NCBI GenBank assembly: GCA_000989515.1
Contig: LBOM01000004.1
Location: forward strand, 56,149 to 120,148
Reading direction: 5' to 3'
Source: Candidatus Nomurabacteria bacterium GW2011_GWE1_32_28
Lineage (GTDB): Bacteria > Patescibacteriota > Minisyncoccia > Phycocordibacterales > UBA9973
DNA length: 64,000 bases
The position numbers and the translations under genes were made by a program. The notes under the pieces are model-generated. The model searched no databases. It had not been told where the DNA came from and worked only from the letters and a program-made list of their open reading frames with translations. Numbering within the stretch: position 1 is the first letter of the stretch; each line of letters opens with the position of its first letter. Shown here in pieces: positions 9,768 through 46,527 of the stretch.

Positions 9768-10126
9768 ATAGTCTTGCGTTAGATAGTTTAAGCTATAATT
9801 TTATTATAGTTAGGAAAGTCCGAACACAATGATCCCCTTTTGGGGTGGGAATAATAGTGGGTAACGCCCACATATAGCAATATATAGGTGCGAACAGAGA
9901 CGTTCTATAGCGAAAGCTCTAGAATGCCATACAGGCAACTGTGTGGTAAGCTCTACAGTGATGTAGAAGATGAAACGGCTAAATCCTTATTTTTGTGCAA
10001 GATCGTACTCTAGTTTCGGCTAGAGAGAATCGCTCGAGTCTATCAGTAATGATAGACCTAGATAAATAGCTATCACCCAAACTTTAGTTTGAGAACAGAA
10101 TTCGGCTTATAGACACAAGACTACAA
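9768..10126 (+). ncRNA. rnpB: RNase P RNA (bacterial type A)
   Basis: P4 GGAAAGTCCGAAC; GGGTAACGCCCAC; GATGAAACGGC; ACAGAATTCGGCTTATAG; P1 closure TAGTCTTG(9769) with CAAGACTA(10116). Confidence 0.8.
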
Positions 10127-23588: not shown

Positions 23589-23661
23589 GCCGCTTTAGCT
23601 CAGTTGGTAGAGCAACACTTTTGTAAAGTGAAGGTCCTCAGTTCGAATCTGAGAAGCGGCT
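23589..23661 (+). tRNA. tRNA-Thr (anticodon UGU)
   Basis: acceptor gccgctt/aagcggc, D arm gctc-agttggta-gagc, anticodon loop tttgtaa, T arm ctcag-ttcgaat-ctgag, discriminator U; CCA not encoded. Confidence 0.85.
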
Positions 23662-23704
23662 CAAGTAAAACTCTTAAAAACTAAAAGCAGCTAGTTTATA
23701 TTTT

Positions 23705-38340: not shown

Positions 38341-40281
38341 GTGAAAAAAGAATACAAAAAGGAAGAAAAAAGAGTAAGTAAAGTAATACAAGGAATCATA
38401 TCTGTTTCTGCAAAAGGCACAGGATACCTAAGAGTCCCTGATTATAAAGAAGATCCTGAGATTAACTTCAAAGATTTAAACACAGCACTTCATGGTGATG
38501 TAGTTGAAATTATACTAAACCCAAAAGGACATGGACGTATTACTGCAAAAGTATCCAAAATAATCTCACGTGCAAAGATTGGTTTTTCTGGAGTTTTAGA
38601 AAAAAAAGATAATAAATATTTACTAAAACCAGATGATACAAAAATGTACACTTATATTTTAATATCAGAAAAAATGTTAAATGGTGCGAAGATCGGACAA
38701 AAAGTTTATGTAGAAATAACCCTTTGGAAAGATTCAACAAAAATGCCAGAAGGAAAAATAGTAAAAGTTTTAGGACAACCAGGAGAAAATAATGCAGAGA
38801 TGTATGCCATTGCGATAGAAAAAGGTTTCAACAGTGATTTCCCTCAAAAAGTAGAAGAAGAAGCGAGAAAAATAAAAAATCTTGGTATCAGTAATGAAGA
38901 TTATAAAGATAGACGTGATTTTAGAAAAACTCTCACATTCACGATTGATCCAGAAGATGCAAAAGATTTTGATGATGCTATTTCTTTTAAAGAAATTGGA
39001 AACAATGAATACGAAATAGGGATACATATAGCAGACGTCTCTCATTATGTAAAAATAGAAAGTGAGCTCGACCGTGAAGCAAGAAAAAGAGGAACCTCTG
39101 TATATTTAGTAGATAGAACGATACCAATGCTGCCAGAGATTCTCTCAAATGACTTATGCTCTCTTATGCCAAATAAGGATAGACTAACCATGAGCGCTGT
39201 TTTTGTTTTAAATAAAAATGCAGATGTTTTAAAAGAATGGTATGGACACACAATAATACATTCTCAAAAAAGATTTTCTTATGAAGATGCAGAGAAATCT
39301 ATAAAAAAAACAGAATTACCATTTCATAAAGAACTTTCTATTTTAAATAATCTAGCAAAAAAATTAACAAAAGAAAGATTTACAAATGGTGCTATATCGC
39401 TAGAACAAGAAGAAGTAAAATTTATCTTAGATAAAAATGGAACACCTATAAAAGTAATCAAAAAAGAACGAGGTGATTCTAATAAATTAATAGAAGAATT
39501 TATGCTTTTAGCAAATAAAAAAATAGCTGAAACTATTTCAAAAGGCACAAAAAAAGAAGGTGGAGTGTTTGTATATCGTATACACGATAACCCAAACAAA
39601 GAAAAGATGACAGACCTAGCATTCTTCTTGCGAAGCTTAGGACATAAAATATCTTTAGTAGATGGAATCATTCCAACAAAAGAAATAAATAATCTTTTAA
39701 AAAAACTAGAGGGTAAAAGTGAAGAAAGTACAGTTAATCGTGCAGTAATACGCTCTATGGCAAAAGCAATTTATTCTACAAAAAATGTGGGACATTATGG
39801 TTTAGCATTTGAGTATTACGCTCACTTTACTTCACCCATTAGACGATATCCTGATATAGTAGTACACAGACTTTTAACAGATTATCTAAATAAATTAAAA
39901 GTTGGTAAAGAAAAATTAAATATATATGAAGAGATATCAAGACATGCATCAGAACGAGAAAAATATGCCTCTGATGCTGAGAGAGCTTCAATAAAATATA
40001 AACAAGTTGAATATATGTCTTCTCGTATTTCAGAGACATTCAAAGGAATAGTGAGTGGATTAACAGAATGGGGTATCTATGTAGAAGAAAAAGAAACAAA
40101 ATGTGAAGGACTTGTGCGAGTAAGAGACATGGGAGATGATTTTTATGTTTTTAATGAAAAGAAATTAGAACTAGTTGGTCAAAAAAAGAAAAAAAGGTAC
40201 CGCCTTGGTGATAGTGTCACAATAAAAGTAAAAAGTGTTGATTTAGAAAAAAAGACAATAGACTATATATTGATAATATAA
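38341..40281 (+). CDS. rnr: ribonuclease R (RNase II family)
   Basis: RNB-domain motifs TIDPEDAKDFDDA, HIADVSHYV; C-terminal S1-like region; GTG start. Confidence 0.8.
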   Translation: MKKEYKKEEKRVSKVIQGIISVSAKGTGYLRVPDYKEDPEINFKDLNTALHGDVVEIILNPKGHGRITAKVSKIISRAKIGFSGVLEKKDNKYLLKPDDTKMYTYILISEKMLNGAKIGQKVYVEITLWKDSTKMPEGKIVKVLGQPGENNAEMYAIAIEKGFNSDFPQKVEEEARKIKNLGISNEDYKDRRDFRKTLTFTIDPEDAKDFDDAISFKEIGNNEYEIGIHIADVSHYVKIESELDREARKRGTSVYLVDRTIPMLPEILSNDLCSLMPNKDRLTMSAVFVLNKNADVLKEWYGHTIIHSQKRFSYEDAEKSIKKTELPFHKELSILNNLAKKLTKERFTNGAISLEQEEVKFILDKNGTPIKVIKKERGDSNKLIEEFMLLANKKIAETISKGTKKEGGVFVYRIHDNPNKEKMTDLAFFLRSLGHKISLVDGIIPTKEINNLLKKLEGKSEESTVNRAVIRSMAKAIYSTKNVGHYGLAFEYYAHFTSPIRRYPDIVVHRLLTDYLNKLKVGKEKLNIYEEISRHASEREKYASDAERASIKYKQVEYMSSRISETFKGIVSGLTEWGIYVEEKETKCEGLVRVRDMGDDFYVFNEKKLELVGQKKKKRYRLGDSVTIKVKSVDLEKKTIDYILII

Positions 40282-42221
40282 TGAGTATAAAACATAGCTC
40301 CAGTCAGAAAATTAAACTATGGTTTTGGTCAATATCTATAATTATTATAGGTGTATTCTTTTCATCTTTTATTTTTAATAATGTTAATTATCAAAAAATA
40401 ACAAAACTAATAAATTCAAAAGAAAAAACAGCAATAGCAATAGAATCTTTCTCATCAGCTGATATTGTCCCTCAGTATTTCTACTTTACCAAAGATGTAA
40501 ATCAACAACCAAAAGTTTCAGCTGGTGCATACTTAATTGGTGATTTAGATACAGGAGAAATAATTCTCTCAAAAAACAAAGAAAAACAATTTCCAATAGC
40601 TTCAGTATCAAAATTGATGACTGCGACAGTCGCTATAGAATTAGCAAAGGAAGATGATATAGCCAAGGTTTCCAAAAAAGCGTTAGCTACTTATGGACAA
40701 AATGGTGGATTAAAATTAGCAGAAAAAATAAAAGTTACAGATCTCATTTATCCACTACTACTAGAATCAAGTAATGATGCTGCCGAAATAATAGCTGAAT
40801 ATTTTGATAGAAATATTTTTCTTAAAAAAATGAACCAAGAAGCTCTAAAACTGGATCTATCTCAAACAACATTCGAAGATCCGAGCGGACTTTCTTCAAA
40901 AAACCAATCAACTGTTTTTGATATGTTTAAACTAGCTGGATATATAAATAAAAAAAAACCAGATTTATTAGAAATAACAATGAAAAAAAGTTATACTAAT
41001 AAAAATCATAGCTGGTTTAGCACTAACCAATTCCTATCAGAAGAAGGATATTTAGGAGGAAAAAGTGGATACACAGATCCCGCAATGCAAACAGTCATCT
41101 CTCTCTTTTCACTCCCCTTGGGAGAAGTTGGAAAACGTAATATTGCTATTACATTACTACAAAGCAAAGATCGTTTTAAGGATGTAGAAAATATTTTAAA
41201 TTATTTAAATAAAAATATATATTATGGTGGAGAAGCAGATGCAAATACATCTTGGGTAAAAGAAAGAACAGATTTACCACCGATATTTGATCAAGATTTT
41301 GTGACTCTTCTATTTGGTGGAGATGCTATGCTCGACCGTGGAGTAAAAAACTCTGTAAACAAAAATTTTAAAGGAGATTATTCAGCACTTTTTGATAAAT
41401 TATCAATATTAAAAAAATCTAACATTACTTTTATAAACTTGGAAGGTCCAATATCTGATACTGGAAAAGACATAAAAAATCTATACTCATTTAGGATGAA
41501 CCCTTCTGTCGCACCAGCACTAAAAGGAGCAGGTATATCTATAGTCTCGGTTGCAAACAATCACGCTGGAGACTGGGGACGTGATGCATATATTGATTCA
41601 TTAGGACGTTTAAAAGAAAATGAAATTTTATATACAGGAGGAGGACTAACAGAACAAGAAGCAGAACAACCAACTATCATTGAAAAATATGGAATGAAAA
41701 TAGGATACCTAGGATTCTCAGATGTAGGACCAGATTCTATGAAAGCAACGACAAATAAAGCCGGTTTACTACTTGCTAATAACCCAAATTTTACTGAAAT
41801 AATACAAAATGCTTCAAAAAAAGTTGATTATTTAGTTGTAACATTTCATTTTGGAGATGAATATAAAACCAAACATAATGCAAGACAAGAATACTTAGCA
41901 CATAAAGCAATAGATGCTGGTGCTAAAATTGTAATAGGAACTCATCCTCATGTAATAGAAGATACAGAAGTTTATAGTCCAAAATCTTGCACTCAAATTT
42001 CATGTATGGGATTTATAGCATATTCATTAGGTAATTTTATTTTTGATCAAGGTTTTTCTGTAAATACAATGGAGGGTATGCTTCTTGAAATTAAATTAAA
42101 CAGAGATGGTAGTATGTCCACAAAGAAAAACGTAGTTCAATTAAACAGACTTTTTCAACCAAACAATATAATTATAGGAAAAGAAGAAAAAATAAAATTT
42201 AAAGAAAAATCTGACTACTGA
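40281..42221 (+). CDS. fusion of D-Ala-D-Ala carboxypeptidase (peptidase S11) with a CapA/PGA_cap metallophosphoesterase domain; N-terminal membrane anchor
   Basis: S11 motifs ASVSKLMT (SxxK), ESSND (SxN), KSGYT (KTG); CapA motifs LLFGGDAMLDRG, NLEGPIS, SVANNHAGDWG, GTHPHVIED. Confidence 0.75.
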   Translation: MSIKHSSSQKIKLWFWSISIIIIGVFFSSFIFNNVNYQKITKLINSKEKTAIAIESFSSADIVPQYFYFTKDVNQQPKVSAGAYLIGDLDTGEIILSKNKEKQFPIASVSKLMTATVAIELAKEDDIAKVSKKALATYGQNGGLKLAEKIKVTDLIYPLLLESSNDAAEIIAEYFDRNIFLKKMNQEALKLDLSQTTFEDPSGLSSKNQSTVFDMFKLAGYINKKKPDLLEITMKKSYTNKNHSWFSTNQFLSEEGYLGGKSGYTDPAMQTVISLFSLPLGEVGKRNIAITLLQSKDRFKDVENILNYLNKNIYYGGEADANTSWVKERTDLPPIFDQDFVTLLFGGDAMLDRGVKNSVNKNFKGDYSALFDKLSILKKSNITFINLEGPISDTGKDIKNLYSFRMNPSVAPALKGAGISIVSVANNHAGDWGRDAYIDSLGRLKENEILYTGGGLTEQEAEQPTIIEKYGMKIGYLGFSDVGPDSMKATTNKAGLLLANNPNFTEIIQNASKKVDYLVVTFHFGDEYKTKHNARQEYLAHKAIDAGAKIVIGTHPHVIEDTEVYSPKSCTQISCMGFIAYSLGNFIFDQGFSVNTMEGMLLEIKLNRDGSMSTKKNVVQLNRLFQPNNIIIGKEEKIKFKEKSDY

Positions 42222-42238
42222 AACTTATTCGAACCTTA

Positions 42239-42559
42239 TTAGTCAGGATTATTCACCGAAAGAAAATAATCATTCTTTAGTACCTCTCCAAACCTATAAG
42301 CATTAGCGTGAGAAAGAACTCCAAGGTATGAATATAAAGTAGCTTCAAGTTTCTCCTTTGAAAGAGACCTTGCTTTATATAAAACAATTTTCTTACTAAT
42401 TCTTCTTGTTGCTCTTTCTAAGGTTCTTTTTCTTATCAATACATGATATGGAAAAGAAATATGTCTGATGTAAAGAAATACACTATCATCCAAAATATTA
42501 CCGATGAAATCGGTAGAATGCTTGGTGGATGGATTCGTTCTATTGAAAGATAAAAGCAA
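42239..42559 (-). CDS. DGR-type reverse transcriptase, C-terminal ~100-aa fragment only (remnant)
   Basis: IRKRTLERATRRISKKI..SLSKEKLEATLYSYLGVLSHANAYRF aligns to the Bordetella bRT tail LRKSSVKRAKRKVANFI..SLQRFLASWSGHAQWADTHNL; fingers/palm domains with the catalytic YxDD are absent. Confidence 0.55.
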   Translation of the reverse strand: MLLSFNRTNPSTKHSTDFIGNILDDSVFLYIRHISFPYHVLIRKRTLERATRRISKKIVLYKARSLSKEKLEATLYSYLGVLSHANAYRFGEVLKNDYFLSVNNPD

Positions 42560-42599
42560 AAGGTATCCTTAACAGGATACCTTTTGTATATATGAGATA

Positions 42600-42735
42600 C
42601 TTCGGAGCAAACGCCGAAGCCGAACCATAGAGATCGCCGGCACGGGACACATCGCTCGTGCCGAACTTAAGCCTGTCAACGCTGAAGTAGAAGAGCGGAA
42701 CCAGCGAGAACACGCCATCAGCATCAGGAGTTTTA
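42600..42735 (-). repeat. TR-like GC-rich repeat, cognate of the VR-like segment at 43102-43240
   Basis: 124-nt gapless alignment of 42607-42730 with 43112-43235 at ~70% identity; translates in the same frame to a similar peptide (ORF 42540-42764). Confidence 0.5.
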
Positions 42736-42995
42736 CTACTTTCCATCCAAGTCACAAACCACAAAACATGATATTACACATGAATCACAATTCTCTATTT
42801 TATCTGGCAACACAATTACTTACTTGCCTTAAAAAGTAATAAGCAGTATCCCTTGTTACAGCGACACTCTTATAGTAACCATAATCACTATAATTCTGGT
42901 CGGAGATTTTTCATAAGAGAAAGAGTTCGGTAATAGTCATCCTTAAACGACTATACACTAACCTAGACTCACAATTACTATATCAATTTTTAAAT

Positions 42996-43034
42996 TAAAC
43001 GCAAAAATAGGGTCATCCATGTGGATAACCCTAT
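42996..43034 (-). terminator. 12-13-bp stem-loop plus U-tract immediately 3' of the VR-containing gene
   Basis: atagggt(c)atcca-tg-tggata(a)ccctat; one G.U pair on the minus-strand transcript, then tttttgcg. Confidence 0.55.
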
Positions 43035-43098
43035 TCAAAAAAATTTTTGAAATCAAGAATCAAAGAAACAAAAGATTCAAGAATTCAAATTACAAGGA

Positions 43099-43926
43099 TC
43101 AATTCTGTGGAACAAACCCCGACACCGAGCCATAGCGACCGCCGGCACCGGACACACCGCTGGTGCCGAACTCCAACTCGCCGCCAAAGAAGCGGAAGAA
43201 AGGAGCCCTCGAGAAGACACCATCACCACCAGGAGCAGGAGCAAATTCGTCACCTGCACAATCGGTATCAAGTTCTTTGGAGCAGACGTGACGGTCAGGG
43301 TGAACCAATGCCATACAGCCAAGAGCAAAGGATGTTAAACCAAATTCGTTGTCTAAGAAAGTTTCTCTTGCACGGCGAACTGATTTGCCACGATGTCTCA
43401 TTCCGTATTGAACGGCGAGAATCAGAATATCACCCTGTTGTTCAGATTCCAATTGTTCTAGGAAACTGAGGGTACGGGGATGTTCGCGAATCTGTGCAGT
43501 GGTAATCTGACCTTTAAGGTAATTGTAGAAGCTACGGCTTTCAGCAAGTTTGCTGTGAACCAATTTTGTAGCTTCACAATACTGTTCGGCAGAATCGGTA
43601 ATCGCAGAAAAATGTTTTTTTGCAACTGATGATACTTTTGGAATGGCGAACCATCCTTCGGCACCTTCAGGTAATGCGGGTAACATTTTAATAAATTCCA
43701 ATGCTTCTTTTGAATCAACTCCAAAAATAGTTGCAATGGTTTTTACCTGCTCATCAATTGGCTTCAGTTTGTACTTATTTGGATAAGTATAGCTTGAGCT
43801 AACTACCTCATCGGCGTACTTGTTTGGTGGTGTTGTCATATCCAGAATGATAGCTTTTACAGCTTCTCTGCCAAGATATGCGACTTTGTCTGTTTGAGCA
43901 AACGTGATCAACTTTTCTGTTGTCAT
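43099..43926 (-). CDS. DGR target (variable) protein candidate, about 45% GC and thus atypical for this genome
   Basis: ORF 43099-43971 begins with TTG; ATG at 43926 is preceded by aaaaAGGAtaagaca; the C-terminal 45 aa are shared with the TR-like copy. Confidence 0.55.
   Translation of the reverse strand: MTTEKLITFAQTDKVAYLGREAVKAIILDMTTPPNKYADEVVSSSYTYPNKYKLKPIDEQVKTIATIFGVDSKEALEFIKMLPALPEGAEGWFAIPKVSSVAKKHFSAITDSAEQYCEATKLVHSKLAESRSFYNYLKGQITTAQIREHPRTLSFLEQLESEQQGDILILAVQYGMRHRGKSVRRARETFLDNEFGLTSFALGCMALVHPDRHVCSKELDTDCAGDEFAPAPGGDGVFSRAPFFRFFGGELEFGTSGVSGAGGRYGSVSGFVPQN
43102..43240 (-). repeat. VR-like GC-rich 3' segment of the DGR target gene
   Basis: see the TR-like repeat; encodes the C-terminal ..GDGVFSRAPFFRFFGGELEFGTSGVSGAGGRYGSVSGFVPQN. 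Confidence 0.5.
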
Positions 43927-44280
43927 TGTCTTATCCTTTTTAGATTTAAAGAACTGGGTCCCGACACCCAAGTTCCATGTGTTAAATAGAGGTCGGGTAT
44001 CGTTTACTAGATATTAGTATATCATATTCAATCTTTTTGTCAACTCATAGATTTACATGAATTAAAAAATTAAATTATAATTCACATATTGAAAAATTTA
44101 ATCAAACCTTGCAAGAAAAATGTCTAAAAAAATATCAGCAGATGCTTTTTAAATTAATTACAAACTTAAAAAATGTTTGAGATACTATAATTATCAAAGA
44201 CTAAACGTGGAAATTAATTTAAAAACATCAAGTCAATTATTAACAAAGTGATTCCAAACTATTAATTATTTCAATAATTT

Positions 44281-46527
44281 TTATTTAGCAATAGCTGCGG
44301 CTTCGTCAAGTTTTACTGAAAGAAGTTTTGAGGCACCATCAGAACCCACTGTGACACCATAAAGAATACCAGCACGAGACATAGTCTCTCTGTTGTGTGT
44401 AACAACAATAAGCTGAGAATGATGAGAAAGCTTTTCCAACATATCTCCGTATTTACGAGAATTTGCCTCATCGAGTGCTGCATCTGTCTCATCTAAAACT
44501 AAAAATGGTGGTGGATTTACTTGCGACATAGCAAAAAGAAGAGCAATAGAAGTAAGTGATCTCTCACCACCTGAAAGTGCATTAAGTTCTTTTACTTTTT
44601 TATGAGGAAGCGAAACATTTATCTCAATACCCTGTTCAAAAACAATATTTTCTCCTTCTTCTGTATTTGATTCATCATCATTCTTCTTCCTTTTATTTTC
44701 AGTTACTATGGAAAGATAACCCTCTCCACCACCAAACATTAATGAGAAAAAATTACTAAATTCTATATTTATTTTTTTAATACCTTCTTTAAACTCTATA
44801 TCAATTTTTTCTTTTAAATCTGCCATTAATACACGAAGTGCTTCTATGCTTTTGGATAAGTCTTCCATTTCTTTAGCTAAAAAGTTATCTCTTTCTGAAA
44901 CTTCTTGAAACTCTTTAATAACTTCAGCCCCACCACCTAGGCCAACATCTTCTAATTTTATTTTAATACGTTCAATTTTACGTTTTAATTCTTCTTGTAT
45001 ACTTCTATCTATATTTTCCTCTATAACAAAATCTTTATAAGACAATATTTCAATACCAATAAGCACTGAGCCTTCTTTTATCTCATTTTCAAAAGATTCC
45101 ATTTCTTTTAATAAATTCCTTTCTTTTATTAAAATAAGCTCTAATGCAGAAGTTAATTCTTGATACTTGACCCTAAGATTAAATCTTTCTTTTTCTTTTA
45201 AATATATGTCTTCATTGTCTTGATTAATCTCTCTTTTTAATATATCTATATTTTCAATAATCTTATTTTCCTCTTCTTTGATGTTCTGCATTTCTGTTAA
45301 AATCTCCTGCTGATTTTTCTTTAATAATTCTAACTCAGGATTTAAAATTGAATTTAAATTTTGTGAAGAATCTTCTATGGAAACTTTTGGCAAAAGTTCT
45401 TTTAAAATATCTTTTATATGTAAAAGAATATTTTTAATATCTGACAAATCTTCCTTATTTATAGCTTCATTTATAAAATCATTTATTTCATTAAATATTG
45501 TTTTTACTTTCTCTTCTGAAATTAGTACAACAGATTCTGGTATTTTTGTTTCTTTTCTCTTTTCTTCCACTTCCATCATTCCCTCTATTCTTCCCAACTT
45601 ACGTTCTATCTCACTCTTAATTCCTCTAATTTCGTATACCTTCTTTTCAAGTATTTTTAATTCTTTTTCTTTTTCACTTTCTTCTCTTGTACTAACTTCT
45701 TCAACAGAAGAAATTTTTTCTTTTATATTTTCTAATTCTGAAGAAATTTTTTCTTTTTCCTTTAAAAGAAAAAACTGTTCTTTTTCTAAATAGACACTCT
45801 CTTTTTTAAGATATTCTTGATAAAAAGACAACAATGTAATTTGCATCTCTTTTGCCTTTTCAAATTTATCTACCTGTTTTTTGAGAAAATTTAAATGAGG
45901 TGCATTTTCTCTACGTAAAAGTGATACCTCTTTCATATTGTCTGTAGTTCTTTCCAATTTACGCTGTGCTTCTTTTATTTTATATTGAAAAATTTTAAGC
46001 CCAAGTGCATCTTCTACCATTTCTCTTCTATCTTTTGATGATGCATTAAGGATTCTATCTGCTTCTCCTTGTGAAATAATATGATGGTGAGATGAACCTA
46101 TGTTTACAGAAGATAAAAGATTATTAATATCTCTCAGCCTAACTTCTGAACCATTTAAAATATATTTATTTAATCCATCAGAATAAACTTCACGAGAAAT
46201 TGAAATAGTCTCATAATTTAAATTAATATTTTCACCTGCCCCATTTATAAGTTTAAAAACCTTATCAGAGTTATTAAAATAAATTGTTACACTTGCGCGT
46301 GAACTTTTAGGTAAATTTTTAGATCCTTTAAAAATCAAGTCAGAACCAGATGATCCACGCATGGATTTGATTGACTGTTCTCCTAAAACAAAACGTAATG
46401 CTTCTACTACGTTTGATTTACCAGATCCATTAGGGCCAACAATAGAAACAATGGAATTTTGAAACTCTAAAACTGTTTTTTTAGAAAAAGATTTAAAACC
46501 ATTTAATTCAAGATTCTTTAGTCGCAT
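44281..46527 (-). CDS. smc: SMC-family chromosome-segregation ATPase (short, 748 aa, no recognisable hinge)
   Basis: Walker A GPNGSGKSN, signature LSGGERSLTSIALLFA, Walker B LVLDETDAALD, long coiled coils; conserved rnc-smc arrangement. Confidence 0.7.
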   Translation of the reverse strand: MRLKNLELNGFKSFSKKTVLEFQNSIVSIVGPNGSGKSNVVEALRFVLGEQSIKSMRGSSGSDLIFKGSKNLPKSSRASVTIYFNNSDKVFKLINGAGENINLNYETISISREVYSDGLNKYILNGSEVRLRDINNLLSSVNIGSSHHHIISQGEADRILNASSKDRREMVEDALGLKIFQYKIKEAQRKLERTTDNMKEVSLLRRENAPHLNFLKKQVDKFEKAKEMQITLLSFYQEYLKKESVYLEKEQFFLLKEKEKISSELENIKEKISSVEEVSTREESEKEKELKILEKKVYEIRGIKSEIERKLGRIEGMMEVEEKRKETKIPESVVLISEEKVKTIFNEINDFINEAINKEDLSDIKNILLHIKDILKELLPKVSIEDSSQNLNSILNPELELLKKNQQEILTEMQNIKEEENKIIENIDILKREINQDNEDIYLKEKERFNLRVKYQELTSALELILIKERNLLKEMESFENEIKEGSVLIGIEILSYKDFVIEENIDRSIQEELKRKIERIKIKLEDVGLGGGAEVIKEFQEVSERDNFLAKEMEDLSKSIEALRVLMADLKEKIDIEFKEGIKKINIEFSNFFSLMFGGGEGYLSIVTENKRKKNDDESNTEEGENIVFEQGIEINVSLPHKKVKELNALSGGERSLTSIALLFAMSQVNPPPFLVLDETDAALDEANSRKYGDMLEKLSHHSQLIVVTHNRETMSRAGILYGVTVGSDGASKLLSVKLDEAAAIAK

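Follow-up and report, generated by a model that had tools for sequence, protein, structure and literature searches.

The 64-kb window, which is the whole stretch of DNA that was analysed, carries on its minus strand a target gene of the diversity-generating retroelement (DGR) type that ends in a variable region (VR). Downstream of it lie a copy of the template repeat (TR) and remnants of the accessory gene avd and of the reverse transcriptase (RT) gene. From the promoter side onwards, the features are as follows.

44016–44043, minus strand: promoter-like site ahead of the target gene, TTGACA-16-TG-TATACT (11/12)
43099–43926, minus strand: DGR target gene, 275 aa (ATG at 43926, stop at 43099–43101)
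43856–43866, minus strand: single remaining copy of the 11-nt direct repeat GAAGCTGTAAA
43231–43242, minus strand: GCTCCT repeated in tandem (6-nt duplication), exactly where the TR/VR homology begins on its 5' side
43102–43235, minus strand: VR, formed by the final 44 codons of the target gene
43046–43089, minus strand: conserved TTGA-rich segment directly downstream of the VR, found in every relative
43005–43036, minus strand: terminator-like hairpin (14-bp stem, 4-nt loop, T-run), starting about 63 nt past the stop codon
42597–42730, minus strand: TR copy at the orthologous TR site, with TR-type flanks and the AAGTAT 3' end kept
42557–42586, no strand assigned: 13-bp hairpin separating the TR from the convergent avd, kept in relatives
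42467–42550, plus strand: what is left of avd, the final 28 codons of a bAvd-type accessory gene
42465–42466, no strand assigned: deletion junction with about 1.09 kb lost, a blunt join within T-rich partial similarity
42239–42463, minus strand: RT remnant, the last 74 codons plus stop (residues ~278–351 of a 351-aa DGR RT)

The segments at 42597–42730 and 43102–43235 form an ungapped 134-nt repeat with 74% identity (99/134 matches; blastn E about 1e-19 within the window); no other position in the 64-kb window, on either strand, exceeds 53/134. The two copies have G+C contents of 0.57 and 0.61, compared with 0.31 for the window. The original prediction, made from the sequence alone, had recognised this gap-free, G+C-rich pair, which proved real, and had rightly stated that its mismatches involve all four bases; its count of 37 was too high, the copies differing at 32 sites over 124 nt and at 35 over 134 nt. 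Nine mismatches fall at adenines of the TR copy and 26 elsewhere, a distribution that departs from the almost exclusive restriction to TR adenines expected of a functional DGR. Rfam and tRNA scans of the region returned no matches; the G+C-rich segments are accordingly not RNA genes. Pfam and NCBIfam searches with three ORFs of the window gave no useful match. No second RT, avd, TR or VR was found in the 64-kb window.

In all loci compared, the VR ends in CCG/CCA-CAGAAT and the TR in CCG-AAGTAT. The hairpin beyond the VR, previously assigned to a homing module, is present, and it looks like the intrinsic terminator of the target gene, which is the simplest account of it. The 13-bp hairpin at 42557–42586 could act as a terminator and/or as a structural element of the TR RNA. 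The TTGA-rich segment may form a hairpin: a hand-drawn stem can pair in it (82% of cells), though no better than in shuffled controls. Its covariation did not exceed controls, and RNAalifold gave no consensus structure.

Intact cassettes of the same family occur in other Parcubacteria (L001, L003, L004, L005, L009, L011, L012, L017, L018, L029, L031, L038, L040 and L041), in the order promoter, target gene with C-terminal VR inside a C-type-lectin-like domain, terminator, spacer of about 370 nt, TR, hairpin, antisense avd and a 351-aa RT. The RTs of these loci give an RVT_1 match at 7e-25, and the Avd proteins a bAvd match at 3.8e-16. Twelve intact loci are near enough for clean alignment, and in these TR and VR differ at 15–27 adenines and at 0–7 other positions; the TRs contain 23–26% A, and 31/31 adenine sites of the family lie at codon positions 1 or 2. 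Bona fide TRs keep 25–31 of about 31 consensus adenine sites (28 or more except in the distant L029), while VRs keep 4–17. Homology between the window and these cassettes starts at 44044, at the promoter-like site, and is collinear over the target, VR flank, spacer, TR flanks, avd end and RT end, as expected of a remnant, with segments 82–97% identical at the nucleotide level to L001, L003, L004, L005 and L037. The locus had been proposed to be a decayed DGR in which a VR-bearing target, a TR-like copy and the RT tail remain, and this is upheld, since orthologous loci (84–97% identity) carry the full cassette. None of the relatives' cassettes is placed between an SMC gene and a Peptidase_S11/PGA_cap gene. 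Independent decay was seen in L032, which has lost the RT and the 5' end of avd, and in L037, whose RT is cut after residue 114. L039 (on a 558-kb contig) and L015/L016 have orphan targets, with neither TR nor avd nor RT less than 5 kb away. The other decay stages represented by L032 and L037, together with the orphan target L039, offer a comparison set for the order in which DGRs die and for cross-talk between co-resident DGRs.

Alignment with L001 locates the loss of the enzyme genes: window positions 43867–42472 correspond to L001 1365–2756 (84%) and 42463–42241 to L001 3854–4076 (82.5%), L001 2757–3853 being absent. On this alignment, one deletion of about 1.09 kb at 42466/42465 took avd codons 1–87 and RT codons 1 to ~277. 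As a result of this deletion, the 106-aa ORF at 42239–42559 is a fusion of 31 antisense-avd codons with 74 RT codons. Its earlier assignment to the C-terminal ~100 aa of an RT was therefore correct as to the RT tail and too generous as to its length, and the 'DFIG' taken for an RT motif lies in the antisense-avd part. The RT remnant (coding at 42463–42242, blastn 82.5% to L001 3854–4076; tblastn E 5e-34 to RT residues 271–351) has no Pfam match and begins wholly beyond RVT_1 (residues 71–278 in L003), in agreement with the noted absence of finger and palm domains; its dN/dS of 0.15–0.22 is close to that of intact relatives. The avd remnant is 82% identical to Avd residues 88–115 (bAvd E 2.7e-4). 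Hence the statement that no Avd-size ORF is present holds for an intact Avd but overlooks this remnant on the other strand. A functional DGR would possess an RT with intact finger/palm domains (RVT_1) and a bAvd-type accessory gene; the window has no such RT, and of avd only the remnant. Because the RT finger/palm region and most of avd are deleted, cDNA production in cis is now impossible. The two 'hypothetical proteins' (66 and 84 aa) annotated publicly at 42239–42559 represent RT debris.

The 275-aa target protein belongs to a large Parcubacteria family without a Pfam match. AlphaFold2 modelled it with a mean pLDDT of 94.5 from an alignment of 101 diverse sequences, and of only 47 with 24 close homologues as input. 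Its C-terminal ~100–130 residues are predicted to adopt a C-type-lectin/FGE-like fold, which would house the C-terminal VR as in other DGR variable proteins; a test for such a fold had been suggested as a check, and the model bears the fold out. A Foldseek search with the model against PDB and BFVD gave no significant match. Among 24 homologues, the body of the protein is 66–82% identical to that of the window, whereas the last ~45 residues vary at adenine-encoded positions, and the 24 distinct VRs differ at 9–20 of 24 per site, i.e. the family presents a hypervariable VR on a conserved scaffold. The gene is intact and under purifying selection (dN/dS 0.17–0.28, close to intact relatives). Pseudogenisation of the target was considered and rejected on the conserved-column substitutions (6 at the 90% level) and on a dN/dS inside the family range. 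Two small rearrangements were noted. Compared with every close homologue, the N-terminal part of the protein is 30 aa shorter, an in-frame deletion of 90 nt marked by the repeat GAAGCTGTAAA, and the GCTCCT duplication, a 2-aa insertion seen only in the window among 24 aligned homologues, is possibly a scar of imprecise cDNA integration. The protein could be annotated as a former DGR target with a predicted C-type-lectin-like tip.

The exact target protein occurs on at least 24 contigs, and 5.7 kb around the target are 100% identical in three loci from different assemblers and sources (ENA contig k141_288093, NCBI GCA_003542535.1 and JGI 3300025009), although some of these supposedly independent assemblies could stem from shared samples. 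Current activity would be marked by a VR that varies inside one strain's populations or from one to another; such heterogeneity was not seen at the level of assemblies, which are consensus sequences in which low-level read heterogeneity of the VR is invisible. The description of this region as a hypervariable-protein locus thus did not survive, its sequence being identical in every public assembly read. The locus is probably a recently inactivated, now frozen cassette of a known and widespread Parcubacteria DGR family, the dN/dS of RT tail and target, near that of intact relatives, speaking for a recent loss.

The TR copy departs from the template that a functional DGR maintains, which is invariant, rich in adenine and has its adenines in the first two codon positions. 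It retains 16/31 ancestral adenine sites, a value in the VR range, and contains 12% A compared with 23–26% in the TRs of relatives. Relative to the closest intact TR, that of L037, 16/32 adenines are changed (G8, C4, T4) and 1/102 other bases (Fisher 4.4e-11), while the non-coding flanks differ by only 3–8%; relative to the L003 TR, the changes affect 15/31 adenines and 5/103 other bases (8.6e-8). The changed sites are those most variable among 24 VRs (Mann-Whitney p 0.0095). These comparisons indicate that the TR copy itself has been adenine-mutagenised. It is not a copy of the present VR, since the two agree at only 6/13 adenine sites mutated in both, and it shows no sign of having acquired a VR-type homing signal, since the TR-type AAGTAT end is kept. 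Small losses of TR adenines also occur in intact relatives (29/31 kept in L041, 30/31 in L020), so the anomaly of the window's copy is one of degree.

The VR, in which 22/31 ancestral adenine sites are changed, points to a different template. Compared with the L018 TR, it is altered at 22/31 adenines versus 5/103 other bases. Its non-adenine identity is 98/103 to that TR and 98/101 to the L039 VR, versus 86/103 to its own TR copy. Within 43196–43112, 11/11 lineage-informative sites are of the L012/L017/L018 type, whereas the flanks are of the L003/L004/L005 type. On these markers, the VR appears to have been written from a TR lineage other than the cis copy, of the L018/L039 type, although the markers could also have arrived when a different target gene recombined homologously with this one, instead of by retrohoming. 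No donor TR closer than L018/L039 was found among the RTs nearest L018 (L041–L045). The mismatch spectrum involving all four bases follows from the mutagenised TR copy together with a VR from another TR lineage; it stems from these two specific causes and not from slow random decay.

The foreign markers also bear on whether the target might still be at work, diversified in trans by an intact L018/L039-type DGR elsewhere in the genome, with the cis debris irrelevant. Fit of the non-adenine VR markers to a TR type other than the cis copy is what this would leave behind, orphan targets are known in relatives (L039, L015/L016), and remote targets have been documented for other DGRs (PMC5758913). 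The identity of the protein on at least 24 contigs, and of the three separately assembled 5.7-kb loci, is difficult to reconcile with such activity; the remainder of the 64-kb window supplied no RT, avd or TR, and among the best 120 of 7496 relatives of the L018 RT, a weak test, none was attributable to the window's genome. Current diversification in trans is accordingly judged unlikely, and the suggestion that the locus is served by an RT elsewhere receives partial historical support from the VR markers and none for present activity. As for the template, its adenines might have been lost by ordinary point mutation, through drift after loss of the RT or selection for a less mutable template. 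A gradual loss of TR adenines in stable environments is predicted by theory (10.64898/2026.02.18.706561), and L041 and L020 show one or two such losses. This account is nonetheless improbable: 16/32 adenines against 1/102 other bases changed between neutral flanks only 3–8% different, half of the changes are transversions, both positions are struck in four AA dinucleotides, and drift in a genome of 31% G+C would be expected to make A/T rather than remove adenines. Selection, for its part, should have left TR equal to VR at fixed sites, where agreement is only 6/13.

The remaining explanations are weaker still. DGR loci are hard to assemble, and with exact TR/VR shared stretches of up to ~26 nt, reads from VR variants in a heterogeneous population might have been threaded between the TR flanks, or the avd-RT deletion might be a mis-join. 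The same 5.7-kb sequence was nevertheless recovered by different assemblers from different sources, the exact protein recurs on at least 24 contigs, and VR reads of the kind needed should not exist, the TR copy being of the L037 type and the population VR of the L018 type; the chance of an artefact is very slim. Paralogous domain ends of two genes, the second target being pseudogenised, would explain why both copies translate in frame into related peptides. The second copy, however, sits at the exact TR position, with a 5' flank 93–100% identical to the TR flanks of L001, L003 and L037 and a 3' flank 85–92% identical; it has the TR-specific AAGTAT end and the downstream hairpin and avd, and no target-gene body precedes it. 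With its flanks so clearly orthologous, paralogy is refuted to the point of being scarcely conceivable.

For the frozen cassette preferred here, a history can be proposed. By analogy with known elements, the intact RT and Avd would have made cDNA from TR RNA, misincorporating bases at random wherever the template has an adenine, and the product would have overwritten the VR. At least three events seem to have left scars in the window, and listing them implies no order. The TR would have been overwritten by an adenine-mutagenised sequence made from the TR, half of its adenines becoming G, C or T, either by homing of cDNA into the template or by gene conversion from an earlier state of the VR; by whichever route, most of the diversifying power would have gone with the eroded TR. 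The VR would last have been rewritten from an L018/L039-type TR, which suggests that a second DGR or a second target gene was once present in the cell. A single deletion of about 1.09 kb took out the 5' three-quarters of avd and the entire RT finger/palm region. The target seems to persist as an ordinary gene under purifying selection, its binding surface frozen. It is tentatively proposed, as a possible rather than an established sequence, that the DGR ruined its own template when cDNA or a VR product was written into the TR, that a second, heterologous DGR took over the VR, and that the enzyme genes were then deleted. What defines a DGR is that information passes in one direction only, out of an invariant template and into a variable gene; how this asymmetry is enforced, and how DGRs come to be lost, is poorly documented in nature. 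If the proposal were true, TR invariance would not be absolute in nature, template self-mutagenesis would be one route of DGR death, and related DGRs sharing a cell could cross-template each other's targets.

The reference DGR, that of Bordetella phage BPP-1 (mtd VR, TR, avd, brt), shares a nearby TR copy with the window. Relatives of the window resemble it further in their bAvd-type accessory gene, RVT_1 RT, TR-to-VR differences confined to adenines in the first two codon positions, and TR and VR 3' ends that differ (AAGTAT vs CAGAAT), as expected of IMH* and IMH. Unlike BPP-1, the window lacks a functional RT or Avd, belongs to a family in which an antisense avd abuts the RT start, has its main hairpin ~63 nt beyond the VR and terminator-like, resides in the chromosome of a CPR bacterium rather than in a phage, and carries a TR copy that appears mutagenised. 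In BPP-1, Doulatov and colleagues reportedly saw TR mutagenesis (2004) only after an experimental IMH*-to-IMH swap.

CPR/Parcubacteria DGRs are said to feature in the 2017 genomic survey of Paul and colleagues. The surveyed elements of this host group share with the window a single adjacent target, a chromosomal location and a small RT (Paul et al., 2017; Wu et al., 2018, PMC5758913), and the window cassette has 84–97% nucleotide identity to intact CPR/Parcubacteria members. Such surveys would not call it, because they require an RT and an A-biased TR/VR pair; the maximum of non-A-to-N differences for one target was 11 (PMC5758913), compared with 26 non-adenine differences in the window. In remote-target DGRs such as those of Treponema denticola and Legionella, the TR that writes a VR does not lie next to it (PMC5758913), and the VR of the window likewise has non-cis markers; there, one DGR serves several targets, whereas here the target adjoins a dead cassette of its own whose TR belongs to a different lineage. 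A donor DGR for this VR was not located in the 64-kb window and relatives searched.

Template self-mutagenesis or template-adenine loss in a natural element was not described in the literature searched. DGR death through loss of TR adenines has been treated in theory (10.64898/2026.02.18.706561). In engineered Escherichia coli systems (DGRec and related), cDNA recombines with any homologous sequence including the TR, whose adenines are progressively lost, which lowers mutagenesis (10.64898/2026.07.21.739853; 10.64898/2026.06.12.731847). Those systems use an added recombineering protein and operate without natural homing control, whereas the window represents a natural element; the end state of their TR is that of the window's TR copy. 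What is a practical problem in engineered DGR mutagenesis, in the case of template self-mutagenesis, and a theoretical prediction, in the case of TR adenine loss, may have a natural counterpart at this locus.

The reading of this locus as a decayed diversity-generating retroelement (DGR) proved essentially right: the locus is collinear with intact cassettes found among related loci in other assemblies (L001-L045) and keeps remnants of the avd and reverse transcriptase (RT) genes left by a deletion. Judged from comparative sequence, it appears to be a DGR, now dead, of a CPR family already known, with the following parts:

43099-43926, minus strand: target gene, 275 aa
43102-43235, minus strand: VR, C-terminal end of the target gene
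42597-42730, minus strand: TR copy
42467-42550, plus strand: avd remnant, final 28 codons, 82% to Avd residues 88-115
42463-42242, minus strand: RT remnant, final 74 RT codons

The target protein (ATG 43926) has a 100% identical counterpart, annotated as hypothetical, in Candidatus Nomurabacteria GW2011_GWE1_32_28 and in related assemblies. Its homologues number 619 in a 90%-clustered collection and 1776 cluster representatives in a 50% library (E ≤ 1e-3), the named ones coming nearly all from Parcubacteria. On L001, which encodes the homologue P0008, the target gene is followed by a 137-nt repeat pair (VR 1988-2124, TR 2496-2632), a bAvd gene (115 aa) running antisense to the others and, directly adjoining it, a 351-aa RVT_1 gene; this layout recurs in 13 other loci from metagenomes and MAGs. 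Among the 12 intact loci close enough for clean alignment, 15-27 TR/VR mismatches fall on TR adenines and 0-7 on other bases, adenines make up 23-26% of the TR, and all 31 consensus adenine sites occupy codon position 1 or 2. In L003, the RT matches RVT_1 (7e-25, residues 71-278) and Avd matches bAvd (3.8e-16). By these features, the intact relatives are a textbook DGR family. Relative to target, TR and RT their avd is antisense, and its start codon adjoins that of the RT without a spacer (L001 2675-4078; L003 5407-6810; L038 6479-7879; L040 6488-7882); an antisense gene therefore separates TR from RT, which is an unusual DGR gene order.

On the minus strand, positions 43867-42472 are collinear with L001 1365-2756 (84%) and positions 42463-42241 with L001 3854-4076 (82.5%), L001 2757-3853 having no counterpart in the window. 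Relative to L003, about 1.09 kb is absent between 42466 and 42465, the junction being a blunt join within T-rich partial similarity. The avd remnant matches positions 84-106 of the 107 in the bAvd profile (E 2.7e-4). The RT remnant begins exactly where the RVT_1 domain ends, so that none of the finger and palm motifs survives, the catalytic YxDD included, as the original prediction had it. The ORF at 42239-42559, taken there for the C-terminal ~100 aa of an RT, does contain an RT tail, limited to the last 74 codons. This 106-aa ORF is an accidental fusion of the antisense avd remnant with the RT tail: codons 1-31 are the avd remnant read backwards, and the supposed RT motif 'DFIG' belongs to this portion. 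The antisense avd frame is also open in L032. The C-terminal 66 residues match a 145-aa RVT_1 fragment (70% identity), the ORF has no match in Pfam or NCBIfam, and no further RT, avd, TR or VR was found in the 64-kb window. The dN/dS of the RT tail (0.15-0.22) is not elevated; compared with the split from L003-L005, the deletion is therefore a recent one.

The GC-rich segments form a genuine TR/VR-type repeat, ungapped over 134 nt with 74% identity (99/134) and a spacing of 505 nt in the repeat search, against 53/134 for the next-best match to the VR on both strands of the window. The G+C of the two copies is 0.57 and 0.61, compared with 0.31 for the window. Mismatches number 35 over 134 nt and 32, rather than the 37 claimed, over the 124 nt originally delimited; they do involve all four bases: on the coding (minus) strand, nine fall where the downstream copy has an adenine and 26 where it has another base. 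Eighteen of the 35 lie at ancestral adenine sites and reflect independent mutagenesis of both copies, which, together with the 17 lineage differences, explains the all-four-base spectrum. Rfam and tRNA scans returned no family and no tRNA in the repeat/ORF region; the only Rfam matches in the window, RNase P RNA class A (9771-10125, 111 bits) and tRNA-Thr(TGT) (23589-23662), belong to the usual set of housekeeping RNA genes.

The TR copy is neither a second VR nor a pseudogene, because it occupies the orthologous site, its flanks being 93-100% (5') and 85-92% (3') identical to those around the TRs of L001, L003 and L037, and retains the TR-specific 3' end AAGTAT (VR: CAGAAT) and the downstream hairpin. 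Its adenines, however, behave VR-like: 16 of ~31 consensus adenine sites are kept, compared with 25-31 in bona fide TRs (at least 28 except in the distant L029) and 4-17 in distinct VRs.

Changes at adenines and at other bases, relative to the TRs of L037 (the closest TR) and L003
Pair compared; adenine changes; changes at other bases; Fisher p
Window TR copy vs L037 TR; 16/32; 1/102; 4.4e-11
L037 VR vs L037 TR (real pair); 25/32; 1/102; 9.2e-20
Window TR copy vs L003 TR; 15/31; 5/103; 8.6e-8

Relative to the L037 TR, adenines were replaced by G (8), C (4) and T (4). Four AA dinucleotides in the copy were changed at both positions. Random decay cannot explain such adenine-specific changes and double hits, since divergence from L037 in the neutral flanks is only 3-8% and an A+T-rich genome would favour adenine gain, not loss; the pattern is the one that DGR reverse transcription leaves. 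Changes fall on the sites most variable among VRs (mean 0.66 vs 0.50, Mann-Whitney p 0.0095). Derivation from the present VR is ruled out because the two copies agree at only 6/13 adenine sites mutated in both. The conclusion is that adenine-mutagenised sequence templated by the same TR lineage came to occupy the TR site, whether cDNA was written there outright or a former VR state was copied in through gene conversion. Adenine-specific template overwriting is well supported by the comparisons, from which we infer its mechanism and order.

The VR has a different affinity from its surroundings. The target body, VR-downstream region, spacer, TR flanks, avd end and RT end are closest to L003, L004, L005 and L037 (82-97%, vs 72-84% for L012, L017 and L018); the VR alone is exceptional, being closest to L012, L017, L018, L013 and L039. 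Inside 43196-43112, lineage-separating sites are 11/11 of the L012/17/18 type, and those flanking it on both sides are of the L003/4/5 type. Non-adenine identity of the VR is 98/103 to the L018 TR, 98/101 to the L039 VR and 86/103 to its own TR copy. The foreign tract coincides with the TR/VR homology, the extent expected had the VR been written by retrohoming from a heterologous TR; an alternative is that another target gene supplied it by recombination. Exactly on the 5' edge of this homology lies a tandem duplication of 6 nt (GCTCCT GCTCCT, 43231-43242), unique to the window among 24 homologues, which may be a scar of retrohoming. Action at a distance is plausible in this DGR family, since L039, an orphan target on a 558-kb contig, has a VR of the same subtype and lacks a TR, an avd and an RT within 5 kb. 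A heterologous VR origin is likewise well supported by these alignments; again, we infer mechanism and order.

The predicted hairpin and U-tract 3' of the VR are present as a 14-bp stem with a T-run (43036-43005). Immediately 3' of the VR, a conserved TTGA-rich segment (43046-43089), common to all relatives, can be drawn as a hairpin with covariation no better than in shuffled controls, and could be a protein-binding or homing signal. The target N-terminal region carries a window-specific 90-nt in-frame deletion (30 aa) between 11-nt direct repeats (site 43856-43866) and still models with high confidence (AlphaFold2 mean pLDDT 94.5, diverse 101-sequence alignment). Given this model, a target-body dN/dS of 0.17-0.28 against relatives (0.11-0.25 among intact relatives), substitutions at conserved columns inside the family range and a strong promoter-like site upstream, the target appears to be a working gene whose binding tip is fixed. 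At least 24 contigs (ENA, NCBI, JGI, Logan) encode this exact protein, and at three loci the identity to the window is 100% across 5.7 kb; no variation is visible in these sequences, which come from consensus assemblies, possibly of related samples.

Decay is common in this Parcubacteria DGR family, and a truncated RT beside a diverged TR/VR pair is ordinary decay, shown by several relatives. L032 (1-1200) has lost avd codons 1-29 and the entire RT, with a pristine TR and 19 A-only mismatches, and L037 (6229-7240) keeps avd and TR intact with the RT cut after residue 114; in both, a cassette of this type has decayed independently. Orphan targets (L039 5001-6038; L015/L016 4884-5729) bear adenine-mutagenised VRs without TR, avd or RT within 5 kb. 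Homology to related cassettes ends at 44044 (promoter) and 42241 (RT stop codon), and the flanking SMC and Peptidase_S11 + PGA_cap fusion proteins (40281-42221, 44281-46527) are seen beside the cassette in no relative. Relatives' cassettes often adjoin N6_N4 methyltransferase and DEAD/ResIII helicase genes (L001, L037, L041-L045), and the cassette seems to move between genomic contexts.

For specialists, the two features of note are the adenine-specific template overwriting and the heterologous VR origin. An eroded TR is seen in the window alone; intact relatives have lost one or two adenines at most (L041, L020). In the intact L041 (3478-3611), two 5' adenines of the TR are gone (GAT to GGT in both cases) and the VR has the same G, a small-scale natural TR adenine loss in a working cassette. 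No description of natural TR erosion was found in the open-access literature searched; a large survey of natural DGRs counts no more than 11 non-A-to-N differences for any target and makes no mention of eroded TRs (PMC5758913). TR adenine loss has been predicted in theory as a route to DGR inactivation (10.64898/2026.02.18.706561), and in engineered DGR systems in E. coli the TR itself is mutated, with adenines preferentially lost (10.64898/2026.07.21.739853; 10.64898/2026.06.12.731847).
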